NCBI RefSeq assembly: GCF_041886205.1
Contig: NZ_CP169029.1
Strand: one strand, 5' to 3'
Length of the DNA: 64,000 nt
From: Escherichia coli
Lineage (GTDB): Bacteria; Pseudomonadota; Gammaproteobacteria; Enterobacterales; Enterobacteriaceae
Part shown: positions 7,615 to 45,911 of the stretch, piece after piece
Numbering within the stretch: the first letter of the stretch is position 1
Layout of the letters: each line of letters begins with the position of its first letter
Notes under the pieces: generated by a model
Databases searched by the model: none
What the model was told of the DNA's origin: nothing
The model's input: only the letters and a program-made list of their open reading frames with translations
Translations under genes and position numbers: made by a program

Positions 7615-10573
7615 CCTTAATCGCGTCATCGGATGGTCTGGTTTACTGCTGACGTCTTTATTGAGTACCAGCGCACTCGCAGACAATATCGGCACCAGCG
7701 CAGAAGAGCTGGGGCTGAGCGATTATCGCCATTTTGTTATTTATCCCCGTCTCGATAAGGCGCTGAAGGCACAGAAAAATAACGACGAAGCAACCGCCAT
7801 CCGCGAATTTGAATATATACACCAGCAGGTGCCGGATAATATTCTGCTGACTTTATACCTTGCGGAAGCCTATCGCCATTTTGGTCATGATGACCGGGCG
7901 AGGCTGTTGCTTGAGGATCAACTGAAACGTCACCCAGGAGATGCCCGACTTGAGCGCAGTCTGGCGGCTATTCCGGTTGAAGTGAAAAGCGTTACAACTG
8001 TTGAAGAACTGCTTGCCCAGCAAAAAGCGTGCGATGCTGCGCCGACCCTGCGTTGTCGCAGTGAAGTCGGGCAGAATGCCCTGCGGCTGGCACAGTTACC
8101 TGTCGCCAGAGCGCAACTGAACGATGCGACGTTTGCTGCATCGCCGGAAGGAAAAACGCTGCGAACCGATCTGCTGCAACGGGCAATCTACCTGAAACAA
8201 TGGTCACAGGCAGATACGCTATACAATGAAGCACGCCAGCAGAACACATTAAGCGCGGCAGAACGCCGTCAGTGGTTTGACGTGCTTCTTGCCGGGCAGC
8301 TGGACGATCGGATCCTGGCACTGCAATCACAGGGGATCTTCACCGATCCTCAGTCATATATTACTTACGCGACCGCGCTGGCTTATCGTGGCGAAAAAGC
8401 ACGCCTCCAGCATTATCTCATTGAAAATAAGCCGCTGTTTACCACGGACGCACAAGAGAAAAGTTGGCTCTATCTGTTATCTAAATACAGCGGCAACCCC
8501 GTTCAGGCATTGGCGAATTATACGGTGCAGTTTGCCGATAACCGCCAGTATGTTGTTGGCGCGACGCTACCGGTGCTGTTAAAAGAAGGTCAGTACGACG
8601 CAGCGCAAAAACTGCTCGCCACCCTCCCCGCCAATGAAATGCTTGAGGAGCGTTATGCTGTCAGCGTGGCGACCCATAACAAGGCTGAAGCTTTGCGTCT
8701 GGCACGATTGCTGTATCAGCAAGAACCGGCAAATCTTACCCGCCTGGATCAACTGACCTGGCAACTGATGCAGAACGAGCAGTCACGCGAAGCTGCCGAT
8801 TTATTGCTGCAACGCTATCCTTTCCAGGGCGATGCGCGTGTCAGCCAGACTTTAATGGCGCGACTGGCGTCTCTGCTGGAAAGTCATCCTTACCTGGCAA
8901 CGCCGGCGAAGGTGGCGATTTTATCGAAACCCTTACCGCTGGCGGAGCAACGTCAGTGGCAAAGTCAGTTGCCGGGTATTGCAGATAATTGCCCGGCAAT
9001 AGTTCGCTTGCTGGGCGATATGTCGCCTTCCTACGATGCTGCCGCCTGGAACCGTCTGGCAAAGTGTTATCGGGACACGCTACCCGGTGTGGCGTTGTAT
9101 ACATGGCTTCAGGCCGAACAACGACAACCGAGCGCCTGGCAACATCGTGCGGTAGCCTATCAGGCGTATCAGGTTGAGGACTACGCCACCGCACTGGCGG
9201 CCTGGCAGAAAATCAGTCTTCACGACATGAGCAATGAGGATCTGCTTGCTGCTGCCAATACCGCCCAGGCGGCAGGAAATGGTGCGGCTCGCGATCGCTG
9301 GCTACAACAGGCAGAACAACGTGGACTGGGAAGCAATGCCCTCTACTGGTGGCTGCATGCACAACGTTACATTCCTGGTCAGCCGGAACTCGCACTGAAC
9401 GATCTCACGCGCTCAATCAATATTGCGCCTTCTGCCAACGCTTACGTTGCGCGGGCGACAATTTATCGCCAACGTCATAATGTCCCGGCCGCGGTGAGTG
9501 ATTTGCGCGCCGCGCTGGAACTGGAACCGAATAATAGCAACATCCAGGCAGCGCTTGGTTACGCCTTGTGGGATAGCAGTGATATCGCACAGTCGCGGGA
9601 AATGCTCGAACAGGCGCATAAAGGGCTTCCGGACGATCCGGCACTGATCCGACAACTGGCCTACGTGAACCAGCGTCTGGATGACATGCCTGCGACGCAG
9701 CACTACGCCCGGCTAGTGATTGATGACATTGATAATCAGGCGCTGATAACCCCACTGACCCCAGAGCAAAATCAACAACGCTTCAATTTCCGCCGTTTGC
9801 ATGAGGAGGTCGGTCGCCGCTGGACGTTCAGTTTCGATTCTTCTATCGGCTTGCGTTCCGGGGCAATGAGTACCTCTAACAATAATGTTGGCGGCGCAGC
9901 GCCAGGGAAAAGCTATCGTAGCTACGGGCAACTGGAAGCCGAGTACCGCATCGGACGCAATATGCTGCTGGAAGGCGACCTGCTCTCAGTTTATAGCCGC
10001 GTCTTTACCGATACCGGAGAAAACGGGGTGATGATGCCGGTGAAAAATCCGATGTCCGGCACCGGTCTGCGCTGGAAGCCGCTGCGCGATCAGATCTTTT
10101 TCCTCGCCGTCGAACAGCAGTTGCCGCTGAACGGGCAAAATGGCGCATCCGATACCATGCTGCGCGCCAGCGCCTCATTCTTTAATGGCGGCAAATACAG
10201 CGACGAATGGCACCCGAACGGTTCAGGCTGGTTTGCCCAAAACCTGTACCTCGATGCGGCGCAATATATCCGCCAGGATATTCAGGCGTGGACGGCAGAT
10301 TATCGCGTCAGCTGGCATCAGAAGGTAGCTAACGGACAGACTATTGAGCCTTACGCTCACGTTCAGGACAACGGCTATCGTGATAAAGGCACTCAGGGCG
10401 CGCAGCTTGGCGGAGTCGGGGTCCGCTGGAATATCTGGACCGGCGAGACGCACTACGACGCCTGGCCGCACAAAGTCAGTCTCGGCGTCGAGTATCAACA
10501 TACCTTTAAGGCGATTAATCAACGTAACGGAGAGCGCAACAACGCGTTTCTCACCATTGGAGTGCACTGGTAA
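7601..10573 (+). CDS. nfrA: Outer membrane protein NfrA (phage N4 receptor, TPR-containing)
   Basis: ORF 7580..10573; internal start at 7601 gives MKENNLNRVIGWSGLLL with signal peptide and about 990 aa; overlaps the nfrB stop. Confidence 0.85.
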   Translation: MKENNLNRVIGWSGLLLTSLLSTSALADNIGTSAEELGLSDYRHFVIYPRLDKALKAQKNNDEATAIREFEYIHQQVPDNILLTLYLAEAYRHFGHDDRARLLLEDQLKRHPGDARLERSLAAIPVEVKSVTTVEELLAQQKACDAAPTLRCRSEVGQNALRLAQLPVARAQLNDATFAASPEGKTLRTDLLQRAIYLKQWSQADTLYNEARQQNTLSAAERRQWFDVLLAGQLDDRILALQSQGIFTDPQSYITYATALAYRGEKARLQHYLIENKPLFTTDAQEKSWLYLLSKYSGNPVQALANYTVQFADNRQYVVGATLPVLLKEGQYDAAQKLLATLPANEMLEERYAVSVATHNKAEALRLARLLYQQEPANLTRLDQLTWQLMQNEQSREAADLLLQRYPFQGDARVSQTLMARLASLLESHPYLATPAKVAILSKPLPLAEQRQWQSQLPGIADNCPAIVRLLGDMSPSYDAAAWNRLAKCYRDTLPGVALYTWLQAEQRQPSAWQHRAVAYQAYQVEDYATALAAWQKISLHDMSNEDLLAAANTAQAAGNGAARDRWLQQAEQRGLGSNALYWWLHAQRYIPGQPELALNDLTRSINIAPSANAYVARATIYRQRHNVPAAVSDLRAALELEPNNSNIQAALGYALWDSSDIAQSREMLEQAHKGLPDDPALIRQLAYVNQRLDDMPATQHYARLVIDDIDNQALITPLTPEQNQQRFNFRRLHEEVGRRWTFSFDSSIGLRSGAMSTSNNNVGGAAPGKSYRSYGQLEAEYRIGRNMLLEGDLLSVYSRVFTDTGENGVMMPVKNPMSGTGLRWKPLRDQIFFLAVEQQLPLNGQNGASDTMLRASASFFNGGKYSDEWHPNGSGWFAQNLYLDAAQYIRQDIQAWTADYRVSWHQKVANGQTIEPYAHVQDNGYRDKGTQGAQLGGVGVRWNIWTGETHYDAWPHKVSLGVEYQHTFKAINQRNGERNNAFLTIGVHW

Positions 10574-28857: not shown

Positions 28858-30525
28858 TTATTGCAAACGTTCTAATAAACGAGCCAGTTTTTTATTGCCG
28901 CCGGCGACTGGCGACCATTGGTAATGCACAACCGGTTTGCTGGCGCTTTGTAGCTCCAGCGCAAAGCTGCGTAATCCGATGTTAATCACGGCGACGTTTT
29001 CCAGTAATGACGGTGTGTGTTGCTGAGTGGCAGGCGAAAGCGGACGAATCAGTGCCGCCGCCAGCAAGGTGGCTTCCGGCAGCGAACTCACTACCGCGAT
29101 CCCTGCATCTTCCAGCGTGGCGATTTGCTGCGAGCGGCATTGCGGGTCACGTTCAGTGCCTGTCACCGTGGCAATGGCATACAGTGGTTGATTGTCTGAA
29201 CGCGCGGCACATGCTTTTTGCCAGGCGCTTACCAGCGAGGCGGCAGGATCGGCGGTCGCACCGAAGCCAATCACGACATCAAGCAGCAATACGCGCACTT
29301 GCGGTTTAGCGCCGAGATCGGCAATTAACTGGTTGCGTAAGGCTGGGTCGATCATCGGATGGGGACGCCCGACGGTGTAGAAATCATCGCCGAGGTCAAT
29401 AATCTGGTGACCATCGGCGTCGAGCATCATGCCGTGATGATGGGTATCGTCGGCTTCCACGCCAAGGTGTCCAGCAAGTAATCCCGCCGCTTCGGCAGCC
29501 AGCGTACCGCCGGTATACAAACCGCAAATAAATCCGCTGCTGACAGGCGCTATTGCGTTACGTCGCGCCGTGACACGTGAAAGCAGGCAAGCCAGGCGTG
29601 CGGCCTCATCCAGCGAGGAGGCAAACCAGACATTCTCGTCGCGGGCCACCGCCGGGGTATAACCTAAAAACAGCGCCACCGTCGGTTTGCCGGTTGCTTT
29701 CATGGCATTAACAATTTTCAGACGCACAGCTTCGGCAGGCGGTTTTGAAACAAATGCCAGCACTTCGCTTTTCTCGTCTGCACTGAGCATTTCCAGCGCC
29801 GTCAGCGCACTGATGCCGCCTACTTCACGGCTGAGGTCGCGCCCGCCAAGGCCAATCGCGTGAGTAATTCCCTCCCCTGCCAGCGCAATCTGCGAGCACA
29901 GCTCCTGAATCCCGGTACCGGAAGCGCCAATGACGCCAATGTTGCCTTCCGGCATCACGTTAGCAAAAGCCAGCGGCGTGCCGGCAATCATCGATGTACC
30001 GCAGTCCGGCCCCATCACCAGCAAGCCTTTTTCCCGCGCGCGGGTTTTAAGTTGGATTTCATCTTCCAGCGTGACGTTATCGGAGAACATCATCACGTTG
30101 AGGTTGCGATCCAGCGCCTGGTTCGCCAGCTCCGCCGCATACTCACCAGCCACTGAAATCAGCGCCAGACTGGCGTCGGGTAATTTCTGACAGGCACTGT
30201 CCCAGCGACGCACCTGCGTCAACGCCTGGCTGCTGCCTGCCCCCTGCGCCAGTTGTTTTAGCGCCTCTTCAAGCTGCTGCATAATCGCCTGCGCGATCCC
30301 CGCATCCGCCGCTTCGCTACGAATTGCCACGCAAATATCGTTCGGCGTGGCGTTATTAAAATCGTCATGCCAGAAACCTGTGGTATCTAATAACGCTTTA
30401 TTGGCGGGCGTACCCATCATTACGGAAACATCATCAACATTTTCTGATTCGCTGAGTTTTCGTGAAATAATCATTAAACTGACCGAATCCTGAAAACACC
30501 CTTTTTTAATAAAGGCGTGGATCAT
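28858..30525 (-). CDS. fdrA: FdrA (succinyl-CoA synthetase-like / CoA-binding family protein)
   Basis: 555-aa ORF with CoA-binding and ligase-CoA domains. Confidence 0.8.
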   Translation of the reverse strand: MIHAFIKKGCFQDSVSLMIISRKLSESENVDDVSVMMGTPANKALLDTTGFWHDDFNNATPNDICVAIRSEAADAGIAQAIMQQLEEALKQLAQGAGSSQALTQVRRWDSACQKLPDASLALISVAGEYAAELANQALDRNLNVMMFSDNVTLEDEIQLKTRAREKGLLVMGPDCGTSMIAGTPLAFANVMPEGNIGVIGASGTGIQELCSQIALAGEGITHAIGLGGRDLSREVGGISALTALEMLSADEKSEVLAFVSKPPAEAVRLKIVNAMKATGKPTVALFLGYTPAVARDENVWFASSLDEAARLACLLSRVTARRNAIAPVSSGFICGLYTGGTLAAEAAGLLAGHLGVEADDTHHHGMMLDADGHQIIDLGDDFYTVGRPHPMIDPALRNQLIADLGAKPQVRVLLLDVVIGFGATADPAASLVSAWQKACAARSDNQPLYAIATVTGTERDPQCRSQQIATLEDAGIAVVSSLPEATLLAAALIRPLSPATQQHTPSLLENVAVINIGLRSFALELQSASKPVVHYQWSPVAGGNKKLARLLERLQ

Positions 30526-30762
30526 AACAACTCCTTAAAAATTGCACCCATGGCAATTGCACGAGCAGTGTTAATGTGGCGATTACGGTATCGATGACAA
30601 CGGGTAAATAAGGTGATGAATATCACACAGGGATTATTAACAAAAGAATTCAAATAACCGCCATGCTATTACGTGTTATTTTTTAATAAGCGTGGTTGTT
30701 TTAAAAACCAGGTTAAAAGCGAGCGGATTATCAAATAAATTCTAACTATATTTTTTTGCCTG

Positions 30763-30782
30763 TCTGGATCACATAATCCAGA
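30763..30782. promoter_or_regulatory. Inverted repeat in the fdrA/allD divergent promoter region (possible regulator site)
   Basis: TCTGGAT-CACATA-ATCCAGA perfect 7-bp arms, about 60 bp upstream of the allD start. Confidence 0.3.
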
Positions 30783-30841
30783 TATTTTCCCTGTATGTTA
30801 ATTGCAGTCATGCTTCACACCGTCGTTAAAAAGGAAGACAG

Positions 30842-31891
30842 ATGAAAATCAGTCGGGAAACACTCCACCAGCTAATTGAGAATAAACTCTGCCAGGCTGG
30901 GTTAAAACGTGAGCACGCTGCAACCGTGGCTGAAGTATTGGTTTACGCCGATGCCAGAGGGATCCACTCTCATGGCGCGGTGCGCGTGGAATACTACGCG
31001 GAACGCATTTCAAAAGGCGGCACCAACCGCGAACCGGAGTTTCGTCTTGAGGAAACCGGGCCGTGCTCGGCAATTTTACATGCCGACAATGCCGCCGGAC
31101 AGGTCGCGGCGAAAATGGGTATGGAACATGCCATCAAAACCGCCCAGCAAAATGGCGTTGCGGTGGTCGGTATCAGCCGGATGGGTCACAGCGGCGCAAT
31201 CTCTTATTTTGTGCAGCAGGCAGCCCGCGCCGGATTAATTGGCATTTCGATGTGCCAGTCCGATCCAATGGTGGTGCCGTTTGGCGGCGCGGAAATTTAC
31301 TACGGTACTAACCCACTGGCCTTTGCCGCGCCGGGAGAAGGCGACGAGATCCTTACCTTTGATATGGCGACTACCGTACAGGCATGGGGAAAAGTGCTCG
31401 ACGCCCGCTCGCGTAATATGTCTATCCCGGATACCTGGGCGGTCGATAAAAACGGTGCACCAACAACCGATCCGTTCGCGGTACATGCTCTGCTCCCCGC
31501 CGCCGGGCCGAAAGGGTATGGCCTGATGATGATGATTGACGTCCTCTCAGGCGTCTTACTCGGCTTACCGTTCGGGCGACAGGTTAGTTCGATGTATGAC
31601 GATTTACACGCCGGGCGTAATTTGGGGCAATTACATTTAGTTATTAACCCGAACTTTTTCTCCTCCAGCGAATTATTCCGTCAACATCTTAGCCAGACCA
31701 TGCGCGAATTAAATGCCATTACCCCCGCGCCCGGTTTTAACCAAGTTTATTATCCCGGACAGGATCAGGATATTAAACAACGCAAAGCCGCCGTCGAAGG
31801 CATCGAAATTGTTGATGATATTTACCAGTATTTAATTTCCGACGCGCTTTATAACACGTCATACGAAACGAAAAATCCCTTTGCGCAATAA
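30842..31891 (+). CDS. allD: Ureidoglycolate dehydrogenase
   Basis: 349-aa ORF of the Ldh_2 (malate/L-lactate dehydrogenase-like) family within the allantoin cluster. Confidence 0.9.
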   Translation: MKISRETLHQLIENKLCQAGLKREHAATVAEVLVYADARGIHSHGAVRVEYYAERISKGGTNREPEFRLEETGPCSAILHADNAAGQVAAKMGMEHAIKTAQQNGVAVVGISRMGHSGAISYFVQQAARAGLIGISMCQSDPMVVPFGGAEIYYGTNPLAFAAPGEGDEILTFDMATTVQAWGKVLDARSRNMSIPDTWAVDKNGAPTTDPFAVHALLPAAGPKGYGLMMMIDVLSGVLLGLPFGRQVSSMYDDLHAGRNLGQLHLVINPNFFSSSELFRQHLSQTMRELNAITPAPGFNQVYYPGQDQDIKQRKAAVEGIEIVDDIYQYLISDALYNTSYETKNPFAQ

Positions 31892-41508: not shown

Positions 41509-43290
41509 TTATTCATAGTGCATGAAGCAGGTTTCAGTCGGTGCATCCGCTGCGTTATCGGCGATATCTTCAAATTCCATGACGTTATCCAGTTCGCTGC
41601 CCATCGAAATATTGGTCACACGCTCGAGAATAACTTCCACGACTACCGGTACCCGATATTGCGCCATTAAGGCTTTCGCCTGTTCAAAGGCTGGCGCAAT
41701 ATCTTCCGGTTTGAAGACGCGAATCGCTTTACAACCTAAACCTTCCGCTACTTTTACGTGGTCGACGCCGTAACCGTTCACTTCGCTGGAGTTGATATTC
41801 TCGAAAGCGAGTTGCACGCAGTAGTCCATATCAAACGCGCGCTGCGACTGGCGAATCAGCCCCAGATAAGCGTTGTTGACCAGCACATGGATGTACGGAA
41901 TGTTGAACTGCGCGCCAACAGCTAACTCTTCAATCAGGAACTGGAAGTCAAAGTCGCCAGAAATCGCCACCACATTGCGTTTCGGATCAGCGGCACAAAC
42001 CCCCAGCGCAGCCGGAATCGTCCAGCCTAACGGACCAGCCTGACCACAGTTGATCCAGTGGCGGTCTTTAAAGACATGCAGCATTTGTGCCGCAGCGATT
42101 TGTGACAGACCAATGGTGGTGACATAACAAACATCGCGACCAAAGGCTTTGTTCATCTCTTCATACACACGCTGCGGTTTCACCGGCACGTTGTCGAAGT
42201 GGGTTTTGCGCAGCAAAGTGCGTTTACGCTGCTGGCAGTCGGCGACCCATTCTTTACGACACGGCAGACGACCCGCTTTTTGCATCTCCTGCGCCACTTC
42301 AACCAGCAGTGTCAGCGCCGCTTTAGCATCAGAGACAATGCCGAGATCCGGACACAGCACGCGACCAATTTGCGTCGGCTCAATATCGATATGAACGATT
42401 TTGCGCCCTTCGGTGTATTTCTCTACCGAACCGGTATGACGGTTAGCAAAACGGTTACCGATACCAAACACCATGTCGGACGCCAGCAACGTTGCGTTAC
42501 CGTAACGATGCGCGGTTTGCAGACCGACCATCCCGGCCATCAGTTCATGATCGTCCGGGATACAGCCCCAGCCCATTAGCGTTGGGATCACCGGAACGCT
42601 GGTCAGTTCAGCAAACTGTTGTAACAGTGCAGCTGCGTCAGCATTAATTACCCCGCCCCCGGCAACAATCACCGGACGTTCGGCCTGGATTAACATTTCT
42701 ACAGCTTTTTCGATCTGCATACGGCTGGCAGCAGGTTTGTAGACCGGCAGCGGTTCGTACATGTCAGGATCAAACTCGATTTCCGCAACCTGAACGTCGA
42801 ACGGTAAATCCACCAGTACCGGACCCGGACGACCAGAACGCATCAGGTGAAATGCCTGTTGCAGCACGCGAGGCACCAGCGCCGCTTCACGAACTGTAAC
42901 CGCCATTTTGCTGACCGGTTTAGCAATTGCTTCAATATCTACGGCCTGAAAATCTTCTTTATGCAGACGGGCGCGCGGTGCCTGGCCGGTAATGCACAGA
43001 ATAGGAATGGAATCAGCAGAAGCGGAATAGAGCGCGGTGATCATGTCCGTGCCCGCAGGACCGGAAGTCCCCAGACATACGCCGATATTTCCTGCCGTTG
43101 CGCGGGTATAACCTTCCGCCATGTGCGAAGCACCTTCCACATGACGCGCCAGAATGTGACGAATACCGCCGTGCTTACGCATCGCTGAGTAGAACGGATT
43201 GATTGCAGCTCCCGGAACACCGAAGGCGGTGGTGATACCTTCTTTCTCCAGCACATACATTGCCGCGTCAACGGCTCTCATTTTTGCCAT
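41509..43290 (-). CDS. gcl: Glyoxylate carboligase (tartronate-semialdehyde synthase)
   Basis: ORF 41509..43380; internal start at 43290 gives [34 protein letters not shown], 593 aa, ThDP enzyme. Confidence 0.9.
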
Positions 43291-43310: not shown

Positions 43311-43327
43311 TTGGAAAATTTTTCCAA
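43311..43327. promoter_or_regulatory. Candidate AllR operator in the gcl promoter
   Basis: Perfect palindrome TTGGAAAATTTTTCCAA about 20 bp upstream of the gcl start on the minus strand. Confidence 0.55.
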
Positions 43328-43342
43328 CTTTCAAATTTTGTC

Positions 43343-43367
43343 AAAAAAACCCGCTCCGCAGAGCGGG
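43343..43367 (-). terminator. Intrinsic terminator after allR
   Basis: On the minus strand: CCCGCTC-TGCGG-AGCGGG hairpin followed by a U7 run, immediately downstream of the allR stop. Confidence 0.5.
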
Positions 43368-43379
43368 ATGCGACAGACA

Positions 43380-44195
43380 TTATGGATGTGCTTTCAGTCC
43401 CAACGCCGTGCTGATATCGCGGGCGGTGTCTCTTACCAGCTCACCCTGACTGACAAAACGATCTTCTGTCAGTCTTGATGAAGGCCCGGAGATGGAGATA
43501 GCGGCAACAACACTACCGACATCATCGTAAATTGCTGAAGCTATGCAATTCAGACCTACAACATGCTCTTCTTTATCTACGGTATAGCCCAGTTCACGCG
43601 CTTGTTCCAGGTCCTTCAGCAAGGTGGGCATATCCACAAGCGTAGTTGGCGTAAACTGCTGCAAACCGGTTTGCAGAATGATGCTCATCAACTCCTCTTC
43701 CGCCAGCGGATAAAGCAGCGCTTTGCCCGCACCGGAAGCATGCAGTGGCAGACGACTGCCCAGTGGCGCACACATCCTGACCATCGATTTACACTCTAAC
43801 TGACCAATTAATACCGCTTCATTGCCGTTACGGATCGCGACATTGACCGTTTCGCCGGAAAGTAACATCAGGCGGCGCATAAACGGCCCGGCGACGGAGA
43901 GGACATCGCGGTTATGGATGTACGCCGCACCGACGTTAAAGACACCTAATCCTATATGCCACCAGCCTAATTGACTGTCCTGATAGACAAAATCCGCTGC
44001 CTGTAAAACCTTCAGCAAGCGAAAGGTCGTGGAGAGCGGCAAATCCAGATTGAGAGAAATATCGCTAACCGACGAACTTCCCCCACTTTTTTCCAAATAT
44101 TGCAGAATCGCAATTCCCCGCTCTAACGCCTGTGCGCCCTTCTGTACCACAGGCTCCGCCTGTCCTGGCCTGCCGCGCCGTCTAACTTCCGTCAT
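43380..44195 (-). CDS. allR: IclR-family repressor of the allantoin regulon, AllR
   Basis: 271-aa ORF with N-terminal HTH and IclR effector domain. Confidence 0.9.
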
Positions 44196-44272
44196 ACCTA
44201 CGTTAACTCCGACCTACAAGTGAGCATAAACAATGAACAATTAGTTTATCTTATGCAAGTCGGTTGCAGGCG

Positions 44273-44755
44273 TCACGCAAAACAGAGTTCCTGTTCAGGA
44301 ATACTTTCAACATCACAGTTGTCACTGCCGCCGCGATCGATGGTCAGAAAATCGGTGACGCGCTGCCAGGCGAAAAGTGGGTGATGCCAGACGTTACGAT
44401 GGTAATTCACTCCCTGTTCGCCGTTGGTGATAAACGCCCGCAGCGTTGACAGGTCTGGTTTGTCGTCACCTAACGCCACGACCACCACAAACACCTCACC
44501 TTTCATCGGGATAAAGGCCTGAGTACCCAGCGGATGACGTTCGAGTTCGTGAATGGTCAGCGGCAGATTCGCCGGTTGCGCGCGGTTAATGCTGATAAGC
44601 GTACGGTCTTGCTCAAGAATCTCAACCAGCGCCAAATCGTGGTAACGCTCCACCAGGCCATTGTTAATATGGAAAAAATCCCGTTGCTGCGTTTCGATTA
44701 CGTCGCCATAAGCACTAAAGGCTTCCTGACTTAACGGTAATACCTGAAGTTTCAT
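44273..44755 (-). CDS. allA: Ureidoglycolate lyase
   Basis: 160-aa [24 protein letters not shown]..., divergent from allS. Confidence 0.85.
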
Positions 44756-44860
44756 CTTTTTGTCCTTGTAACATAATTCCGTTCAACCACCGCCGACCGG
44801 TCAGCTTGGTTTCAATAACAGGCAATCTAAAACCTTAAGAGAACAACATCAATACAAAAG

Positions 44861-44877
44861 TTGGAATATTTTTCCAA
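44861..44877. promoter_or_regulatory. Candidate AllR operator in the allA/allS divergent region
   Basis: Near-perfect palindrome TTGGAATATTTTTCCAA, matching the gcl-promoter box apart from the spacer. Confidence 0.55.
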
Positions 44878-44984
44878 AACTAGATTTAGTCCACAAATTG
44901 AACAGGGTTATCATGTAAAAATACTGATAAATCAGAGGATAAGAAAATCACGCAACTTGCGGATTTAAAAGGGGATACCTGAAG

Positions 44985-45911
44985 ATGTTCGATCCAGAAA
45001 CCTTGCGGACTTTCATTGCGGTTGCTGAAACAGGAAGTTTTTCAAAAGCGGCAGAACGATTATGTAAAACCACGGCGACGATCAGTTATCGCATTAAACT
45101 TCTGGAAGAGAATACCGGAGTAGCGCTGTTTTTCCGTACGACTCGCAGCGTGACGTTGACAGCGGCTGGCGAGCATCTACTTTCCCAGGCCAGAGACTGG
45201 CTGAGCTGGCTGGAAAGTATGCCAAGCGAGCTGCAACAGGTGAATGATGGCGTGGAACGCCAGGTGAATATTGTCATCAACAACCTGCTCTACAACCCCC
45301 AGGCCGTCGCCCAGTTGCTGGCGTGGCTGAATGAGCGTTACCCCTTTACCCAGTTTCACATCTCCCGACAAATCTATATGGGCGTCTGGGACTCGCTATT
45401 GTACGAAGGTTTTTCGCTGGCTATCGGCGTCACGGGAACTGAGGCGCTGGCAAATACCTTTAGTCTTGATCCCTTAGGATCGGTGCAATGGCGCTTTGTC
45501 ATGGCGGCGGATCATCCGCTGGCGAACGTTGAAGAGCCGCTAACAGAAGCGCAGTTGCGGCGCTTTCCGGCGGTCAATATTGAAGACAGCGCCCGCACCT
45601 TAACCAAACGCGTCGCCTGGCGATTGCCAGGGCAAAAAGAGATTATTGTTCCCGATATGGAAACGAAAATCGCCGCCCATCTGGCGGGCGTTGGCATTGG
45701 TTTTTTGCCAAAATCGCTTTGCCAGTCAATGATCGATAATCAACAACTGGTCAGCCGGGTAATCCCAACGATGCGCCCTCCTTCGCCATTGAGTCTGGCA
45801 TGGCGCAAATTTGGCAGCGGCAAAGCGGTAGAAGATATTGTGACCTTGTTTACCCAGCGCAGGCCGGAAATCAGCGGATTTTTAGAAATTTTCGGCAACC
45901 CACGCAGTTAA
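44985..45911 (+). CDS. allS: LysR-family activator AllS
   Basis: 308-aa ORF with LysR HTH and substrate-binding domain; divergent from allA. Confidence 0.85.

Follow-up and report, generated by a model that had tools for sequence, protein, structure and literature searches.

The window analysed here, a stretch of 64,000 nucleotides, comprises the allantoin (ALL) gene cluster of E. coli with the surrounding chromosome and is inverted in orientation with respect to K-12. Complete E. coli genomes match the 2.2-kb stretch surrounding two 17-bp palindromes at 100% identity, and the stretch is present in 5404 of 5426 genomes; in the RefSeq annotation of the 100%-identical genomes it carries gcl, allR, allA and allS. 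The allR product displays the Pfam domains HTH_IclR and IclR_C and matches PDB 1TF1, the solved AllR effector domain, under the name 'Negative regulator of allantoin and glyoxylate utilization operons' (E = 2e-110), so that the locus of the operators also encodes their cognate IclR-family regulator. A third symmetric element, a 7-6-7 inverted repeat, is found upstream of allD, and Rfam returned no RNA family at either palindrome or at this repeat. The features discussed are listed in Table 1.

Table 1. Genes and regulatory features of the allantoin locus, in window coordinates.
Feature	Position	Strand	Basis or remark
fdrA/allF	28858..30525	-	ORF matching the annotated layout
CRP site GGTGA-TGAATA-TCACA, allF (fdrA) promoter	30612..30627		published CRP site and conservation
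LysR-like box TCAAATAAATTCTAA	30731..30745		predicted AllS recognition site for allD
7-6-7 inverted repeat TCTGGAT-CACATA-ATCCAGA	30763..30782		60-79 nt upstream of allD ATG; symmetry Escherichia-specific
GATCACA element, allD promoter	30767..30773	+	left arm and spacer of the repeat; 36 of 36 sequences (window and 35 loci)
Predicted allD -10 hexamer TATGTT	30794..30799	+	conserved GTAT(G/T)TT block (30793..30799), fixed spacing
allD	30842..31891	+	ORF; ATG at 30842
gcl	41509..43290	-	heads the repressed gcl-hyi-glxR-allW-allB-ybbY-glxK operon; ATG at 43290
AllR operator, gcl promoter	43311..43327		TTGGAAAATTTTTCCAA, perfect palindrome, 8-bp arms
Putative consensus -35 hexamer TTGACA, gcl promoter	43339..43344	-	sequence
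allR intrinsic terminator hairpin	43350..43367	-	GC-rich CCCGCTCTGCGGAGCGGG and T-run; directly upstream of gcl promoter
allR	43380..44195	-	IclR-family repressor; RefSeq annotation, Pfam, PDB
allA (ureidoglycolate lyase)	44273..44755	-	repressed target
AllR operator, allA/allS divergent control region	44861..44877		TTGGAATATTTTTCCAA, 7 of 8 arm pairs
allS (LysR-type activator)	44985..45911	+	repressed target, divergent from allA

The original prediction had proposed a pair of 17-bp palindromes bracketing allR and allA. Both are found exactly at the positions proposed, and the ORF coordinates agree with the bracketing, the centres of the two palindromes being 1550 bp apart with allR and allA between them. 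The one at gcl forms 8 of 8 complementary arm pairs around a central T. When the whole window was scanned allowing up to three mismatches, no sites other than these two were obtained; counted by strand, this amounts to 4 matches observed for 0.21 expected, a number that none of 100 shuffles reached. The window strain shows no difference from K-12 at either operator.

Both palindromes are located in control regions, one in that of the gcl operon and the other in that of the divergent allS-allA pair. The latter lies at about the middle of a 229-bp region, the start codons of allA and allS being 105 and 107 nt away, respectively. In the case of gcl, the order read along the minus strand is the allR stop, the terminator hairpin, the TTGACA hexamer, 11 nt, the operator (43327..43311), 20 nt and the gcl ATG, and the last 20 nt contain GAGGTAGGA. 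A sigma-70 consensus scan was uninformative in the gcl, allA/allS and allD regions.

AllR operators at gcl and at allS-allA have been mapped since 2002, are listed in regulatory databases and have been the subject of quantitative models; published work on them includes EMSA and footprinting. The sequences of the window were compared with the AllR motif given as KTTGGAAWAWTWTTCCAAC in Table 1 of PMC8222616 (Suvorova & Gelfand 2021, citing Rintoul 2002). Both sites match it at 17 of 17 core positions and, in their flanked forms GTTGGAAAAATTTTCCAAT (gcl, minus strand) and GTTGGAATATTTTTCCAAA (allA/allS), at 18 of 19. Furthermore, PMC13300388, which cites Rintoul 2002, gives a 37-nt 'AllR recognition site' used for modelling, AAATCTAGTTTTGGAAAAATATTCCAACTTTTGTATT, and this is the reverse complement of window positions 44851..44887, i.e. 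the allA/allS operator with its flanks. That paper also cites an 'AllR dimer' model from Walker 2006. The paper also employs a ~80-bp Pgcl fragment as an AllR-repressed reporter, and its Pgcl primers match the stretch of the window that holds TTGACA and the gcl operator. PMC12535856 summarises the targets of AllR as the control region between allS and allA and the promoter of gcl, glyoxylate being the inducer and allantoin the corepressor. ChIP-seq, Library-ChIP and biolayer interferometry (BLI) data on its binding, together with binding models, are also available (PMC12059191). The proposal that AllR acts on these palindromes to control gcl and the divergent allA/allS pair is thus in line with both the published motif and the published sites.

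In order to follow the operators outside E. coli, comparison loci recovered through AllD homologues were used, some of which extend to gcl, allR and allA. Four Serratia loci, Serratia sp. DD3 and two Providencia loci carry TTGGAA-N5-TTCCAA 15-21 nt ahead of gcl; ahead of allA, a copy with one mismatch or none is present in Providencia, Budvicia diplopodorum and Serratia sp. DD3. The operator is hence conserved at orthologous promoters in other genera, and three Enterobacterales families retain the palindrome at both positions. Within E. coli, divergent strains differ in the gcl operator only at its unpaired central base (T to A), while the arms are fixed. We conclude that the two 17-bp palindromes are almost certainly the operators of AllR, which is encoded between them, and with the same confidence that the 7-6-7 repeat at allD, described further below, is no conserved palindrome. 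Given the motif match, the published recognition site and the cross-genus conservation, the assignment of the palindromes is correct and already known; AllR control of gcl and allS-allA is textbook regulation. The result therefore serves as a positive control, in that a reading of the raw sequence recovered true operators, and it adds nothing new.

The arrangement suggests how repression operates. AllR, a tetramer in solution, binds each dyad through the helix-turn-helix domains of a dimer. The gcl operator fills the space between the consensus -35 hexamer and the Shine-Dalgarno sequence; the gcl -10 and start would consequently fall in or at the edge of the operator, and a bound repressor would exclude RNA polymerase. 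From its position, AllR would be expected to occlude the -10 and +1 of gcl and to shut off the whole operon down to glxK, and an overlap of each operator with core promoters can likewise be inferred. The central operator in the allA/allS region serves to repress both divergent genes. According to the effector responses described in the literature, glyoxylate releases AllR and allantoin strengthens its binding. Derepression of allS then supplies the LysR-type activator of allDCE and allFGHK.

A different mode of action would be that one AllR tetramer bridges both operators and loops out allA-allR, making repression at each promoter interdependent. The near-identical operators do bracket these genes at a distance of 1550 bp, and AllR is reportedly tetrameric (Walker 2006). 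However, each operator sits at its own promoter, which is sufficient for local repression, other genera have operators with different gene content and spacing, and no evidence for such a loop was found in the literature consulted. Moreover, PMC13300388 describes repression by AllR of an isolated gcl promoter fragment of ~80 bp in its reporter strain. Looping is quite unlikely.

The palindromes could also be targets, or co-targets, of IclR, a paralogous repressor that is structurally nearest to AllR apart from AllR itself and whose published motif TGGAAATNATTTCCA (PMC8222616, Table 1) resembles the gcl operator core TGGAAAATTTTTCCA with two specified positions differing. The literature consulted nevertheless assigns both sites to AllR only (PMC12535856, PMC13300388, PMC8222616, PMC12059191), the outer TT/AA of the 17-mer is AllR-specific and kept in every orthologue, and it is the allR gene that lies between the sites, so that binding by IclR is very improbable. 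Finally, that the palindromes are functionless symmetry, of the short kind that is common in AT-rich intergenic DNA such as that in which both lie, has a practically negligible chance in view of the shuffling result, the cross-family conservation at both positions and the published binding.

We turn to the fdrA-allD intergenic region, for which 18 Enterobacteriaceae were aligned and 13 more distant Enterobacterales inspected. The 7-6-7 repeat, which had been proposed as the AllS activator site, is present where it was reported. On its own it is statistically unremarkable: the window contains 80 perfect repeats with 7-bp arms and a spacer of 0-10, against ~55 in Markov simulations, and ~29% of simulated 316-bp intergenic regions of matching composition hold at least one. 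Its arms are complementary at 7 of 7 positions in the window and in E. coli E69 and at 6 of 7 in E. whittamii, whereas 32 other loci, including Citrobacter, display 1-4 of 7; in the orthologous allD promoters the dyad is thus conserved in Escherichia only. The right arm, ATCCAGA (30776..30782), is unconserved even in Citrobacter and falls in the spacer between the GATCACA element and the -10 hexamer. Its complementarity to the left arm seems to have arisen fortuitously in the Escherichia lineage.

Three other readings of this short stretch were set aside. A terminator-like call made on the repeat in the sigma-70 scan was rejected, as fdrA is divergent and no gene reads in from upstream. Inspection by eye at GATCACA and the repeat revealed no fit to an FNR box (TTGAT-N4-ATCAA) or to the sigma-54 consensus (TGGCAC-N5-TTGCA) in E. 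coli, and neither was conserved in other genera.

LysR-type regulators contact a T-N11-A recognition site near -65 and an activation site near -35. In favour of the repeat as the AllS recognition site of the allD promoter, it is located in the fdrA-allD intergenic region, its left arm overlaps an invariant element, and a promoter-proximal activation site near -35 is frequent among LysR activators. In addition, AllS activates allD by binding the promoter region, as stated in PMC12535856, citing Rintoul 2002. The symmetry is lost, however, in 32 loci that keep the same promoter architecture, and the repeat shows no T-N11-A dyad, its layout being T-N6-A/7-6-7 with a GGAT-N6-ATCC core. Furthermore, the DNA in the published AllS EMSA, which relied on crude lysate, was a 60-bp fragment spanning -203/-144 relative to the allF ATG, with a PRODORIC motif centred at -181. 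This fragment corresponds to window positions 30669..30728 and the motif centre to ~30706, a mapping that was checked against a K-12-like record with the fdrA start at 546680. The repeat lies outside the fragment, at least 35 bp away from it, and a better conserved LysR-like box is available at 30731..30745. The repeat itself is real, but its role as the AllS site is unlikely, given the missing conservation, the missing T-N11-A layout and its position outside the AllS-bound fragment.

The LysR-like box is located ~68 nt upstream of the predicted allD start in E. coli, within a block, GATTATCAAATAAATTCTAAC (30726..30746), that is conserved in the 18 Enterobacteriaceae. The TCTAAC of this block (30741..30746), or TCTAAT, is kept in most Serratia, Budvicia, Pragia, Providencia and Erwinia/Pantoea loci. 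At this block Erwinia, Pantoea and Wohlfahrtiimonas exhibit a perfect TTAGA-N5-TCTAA dyad, and Serratia carries it as an inverted pair, ATTGTTAGAA/TTCTAACAAT, with one copy facing each promoter. The AllS paralogue AdnB has a motif similar to this box, TsttwTCAAwAwwwTTGaaGGCA. Judged from the sequence, the box is a likelier candidate for AllS recognition than the 7-6-7 repeat. On the allF side another conserved block, GGATTATTAACAAAAGAATTC, is found at ~30631..30651. Together with 30612..30627, 30767..30773 and 30793..30799, these two blocks make up the invariant or near-invariant part of the region.

The published AllS fragment itself falls where the intergenic region is polymorphic and least conserved. 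Of the 10 intergenic differences that separate the window from K-12, 7 lie in 30660..30720 and none in the conserved blocks. With 41-bp megablast queries, the region of the published AllS site matched 3249 E. coli genomes, 1880 of them identically, while the stretch with the repeat and the -10 matched 5304, of which 5281 were identical, a contrast that is only indicative because of the 28-mer seed and the low-complexity filter, a query for the gcl operator having matched only 2513 genomes; the near-uniformity of the second stretch could be counted in favour of AllS at the repeat. Reading the PRODORIC AllS site as a TGGTT-N8-AACCA palindrome was dropped, as two of the positions concerned are not the same in K-12 and in the window.

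The conserved part of the repeat is GATCACA, made of portions of the left arm and the spacer; window position ~30765 corresponds to 546,440 in NC_000913.3. It is followed by exactly 20 nt and a TAnnnT -10 in 25 of 27 sequences. In class II CRP-dependent promoters TGTGA-N6-TCACA is centred at -41.5; GATCACA stands where the half nearer to the promoter would lie in a CRP-type site of this class. Compared with TGTGA-N6-TCACA, the proximal TCACA agrees at 5 of 5 positions and the distal GCCTG of E. coli at 0 of 5, while the spacer TCTGGA agrees with TCTAGA at 5 of 6. The distal half upstream of GATCACA is neither CRP-like nor conserved.

The allF promoter displays a complete counterpart. The GTGA-N6-TCAC core of its CRP site shows no variation among the 18 aligned Enterobacteriaceae and is present in 24 of 27 Enterobacterales sequences; 23 of these 24 have TGTGA-N6-TCACx followed by exactly 21 nt and TAnnnT, the spacing of a class II promoter with the site centred at -41.5. 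This site is listed as a novel high-affinity CRP site (Kd 9.8 nM, centre 546586, allD/fdrA) in PMC12871828, a Footprint-seq preprint of 2026 with 1,217 CRP-bound regions; the binding reported there concerns the allF-side site only.

From this footprint we tentatively propose, as a possibility that is on the doubtful side, that AllS recognises TCTAAC-type boxes, at 30731..30745 for allD and ~30631..30651 for allF, rather than the annotated site, and that each promoter would also need a class II-positioned CRP-type element, 30612..30627 for allF and GATCACA for allD. If so, the left arm of the repeat would belong to a genuine activator contact, which might supply the missing connection to anaerobic or carbon control of allD. 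The phylogenetic footprint of the allD/allF region, a modestly useful by-product, questions the place where AllS binds and suggests a CRP-type element at each of the two promoters; it could help explain how allantoin catabolism is placed under anaerobic and carbon control.

Compared with known systems, the elements of this locus fall at different distances from their models. With class II CRP promoters, the allF promoter shares the full site and the 21 nt from TCACx to the -10, while GATCACA at allD, as a candidate element, has the same geometry, with 20 nt to the predicted -10, but only the proximal half-site. With LysR-type sites, the box at 30731..30745 shares the position, ~68 nt upstream of the predicted start for an expected T-N11-A near -65, and GATCACA may stand where an activation site would be expected, ending 20 nt before the predicted -10; the 7-6-7 repeat differs from such sites in lacking the T-N11-A layout and in not being conserved as a dyad. 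The IclR operator of aceBAK/iclR is, like that of AllR, an AT-rich palindrome with TGGAA/TTCCA arms, and the two paralogues are both IclR-family repressors responding to glyoxylate; it is, however, a 15-bp dyad without the outer T/A pair against 17 bp for AllR, and it belongs to another regulon and another protein. Lastly, with the AllR operators of the E. coli allantoin regulon the organism, the loci and the sequences are the same and there is no substantive difference: the two sites of the window are the published sites.

The intergenic region between the divergent allF/fdrA and allD genes carries a CRP-type site on its allF/fdrA side. Of 27 Enterobacterales sequences, 24 contain its core, and in 23 of these 24 exactly 21 nt separate the core from a TAnnnT hexamer, the geometry of a class II site. 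The same site is listed as a novel CRP site with a Kd of 9.8 nM in a 2026 Footprint-seq preprint (PMC12871828). It also falls within the -142/-83 fragment on which another paper showed ArcA binding with crude lysate.

Features of the fdrA-allD and allE-glxK intergenic regions (window positions)
Feature	Position	Strand	Remark
CRP-type site GGTGA-TGAATA-TCACA	30612..30627		Upstream of allF/fdrA
Predicted allF/fdrA -10, TACCGT	30585..30590	minus	
Conserved hairpin or terminator-like element, TGCTCGTGCAATTGCCATGGGTG then CAATTTTTAA	30545..30567	minus	allF 5' leader
Conserved AT-rich box GGATTATCAAATAAATTCTAAC	30725..30749		Adjoins one of two divergent promoters
Conserved AT-rich box GGATTATTAACAAAAGAATTC	30631..30654		Adjoins the other divergent promoter; related to the GGATTATCAAATAAATTCTAAC box
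STnc480 sRNA match, 87.6 bits	33951..34017	minus	Rfam gathering score
ES036/CssrF sRNA match, 38.1 bits	34043..34085	minus	Rfam gathering score

The allF hairpin or terminator-like element lies just 5' of the start codon and is possibly a leader structure; the leader block AATTGCACCCAT(G/T)GCAATTG is kept in most Enterobacteriaceae. Both enterobacterial sRNA matches sit in the convergent allE-glxK intergenic region.

Three divergent E. coli strains (G749, MS16-3 and PK8261) have A rather than T as the unpaired central base (43319) of the gcl AllR operator, with both 8-bp arms unaltered. Such a change, confined to the central base, is a sign within the species that the dyad is under constraint. 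The cluster is interrupted by insertion sequences in other E. coli strains: an IS3 inside allB (8378..9606 of comparison locus L001) and IS1 copies within the allS-allA-allR-gcl and fdrA-allD stretches. Some lineages can evidently dispense with the regulon.

Conservation in the fdrA-allD intergenic region is lowest at 30660..30720, where the PRODORIC motif and the fragment from the published AllS EMSA are located. Seven of the ten differences between the window and K-12 in this intergenic region are found there, and the stretch is unalignable in Klebsiella and Raoultella. The two related AT-rich boxes are 94 bp apart, one for each divergent promoter. The TCTAAC element forms a perfect LysR-type dyad, TTAGA-N5-TCTAA, in Erwinia, Pantoea and Wohlfahrtiimonas; Serratia carries it as an inverted pair. 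We regard both boxes as candidate AllS boxes, distinct from the published AllS-binding fragment.
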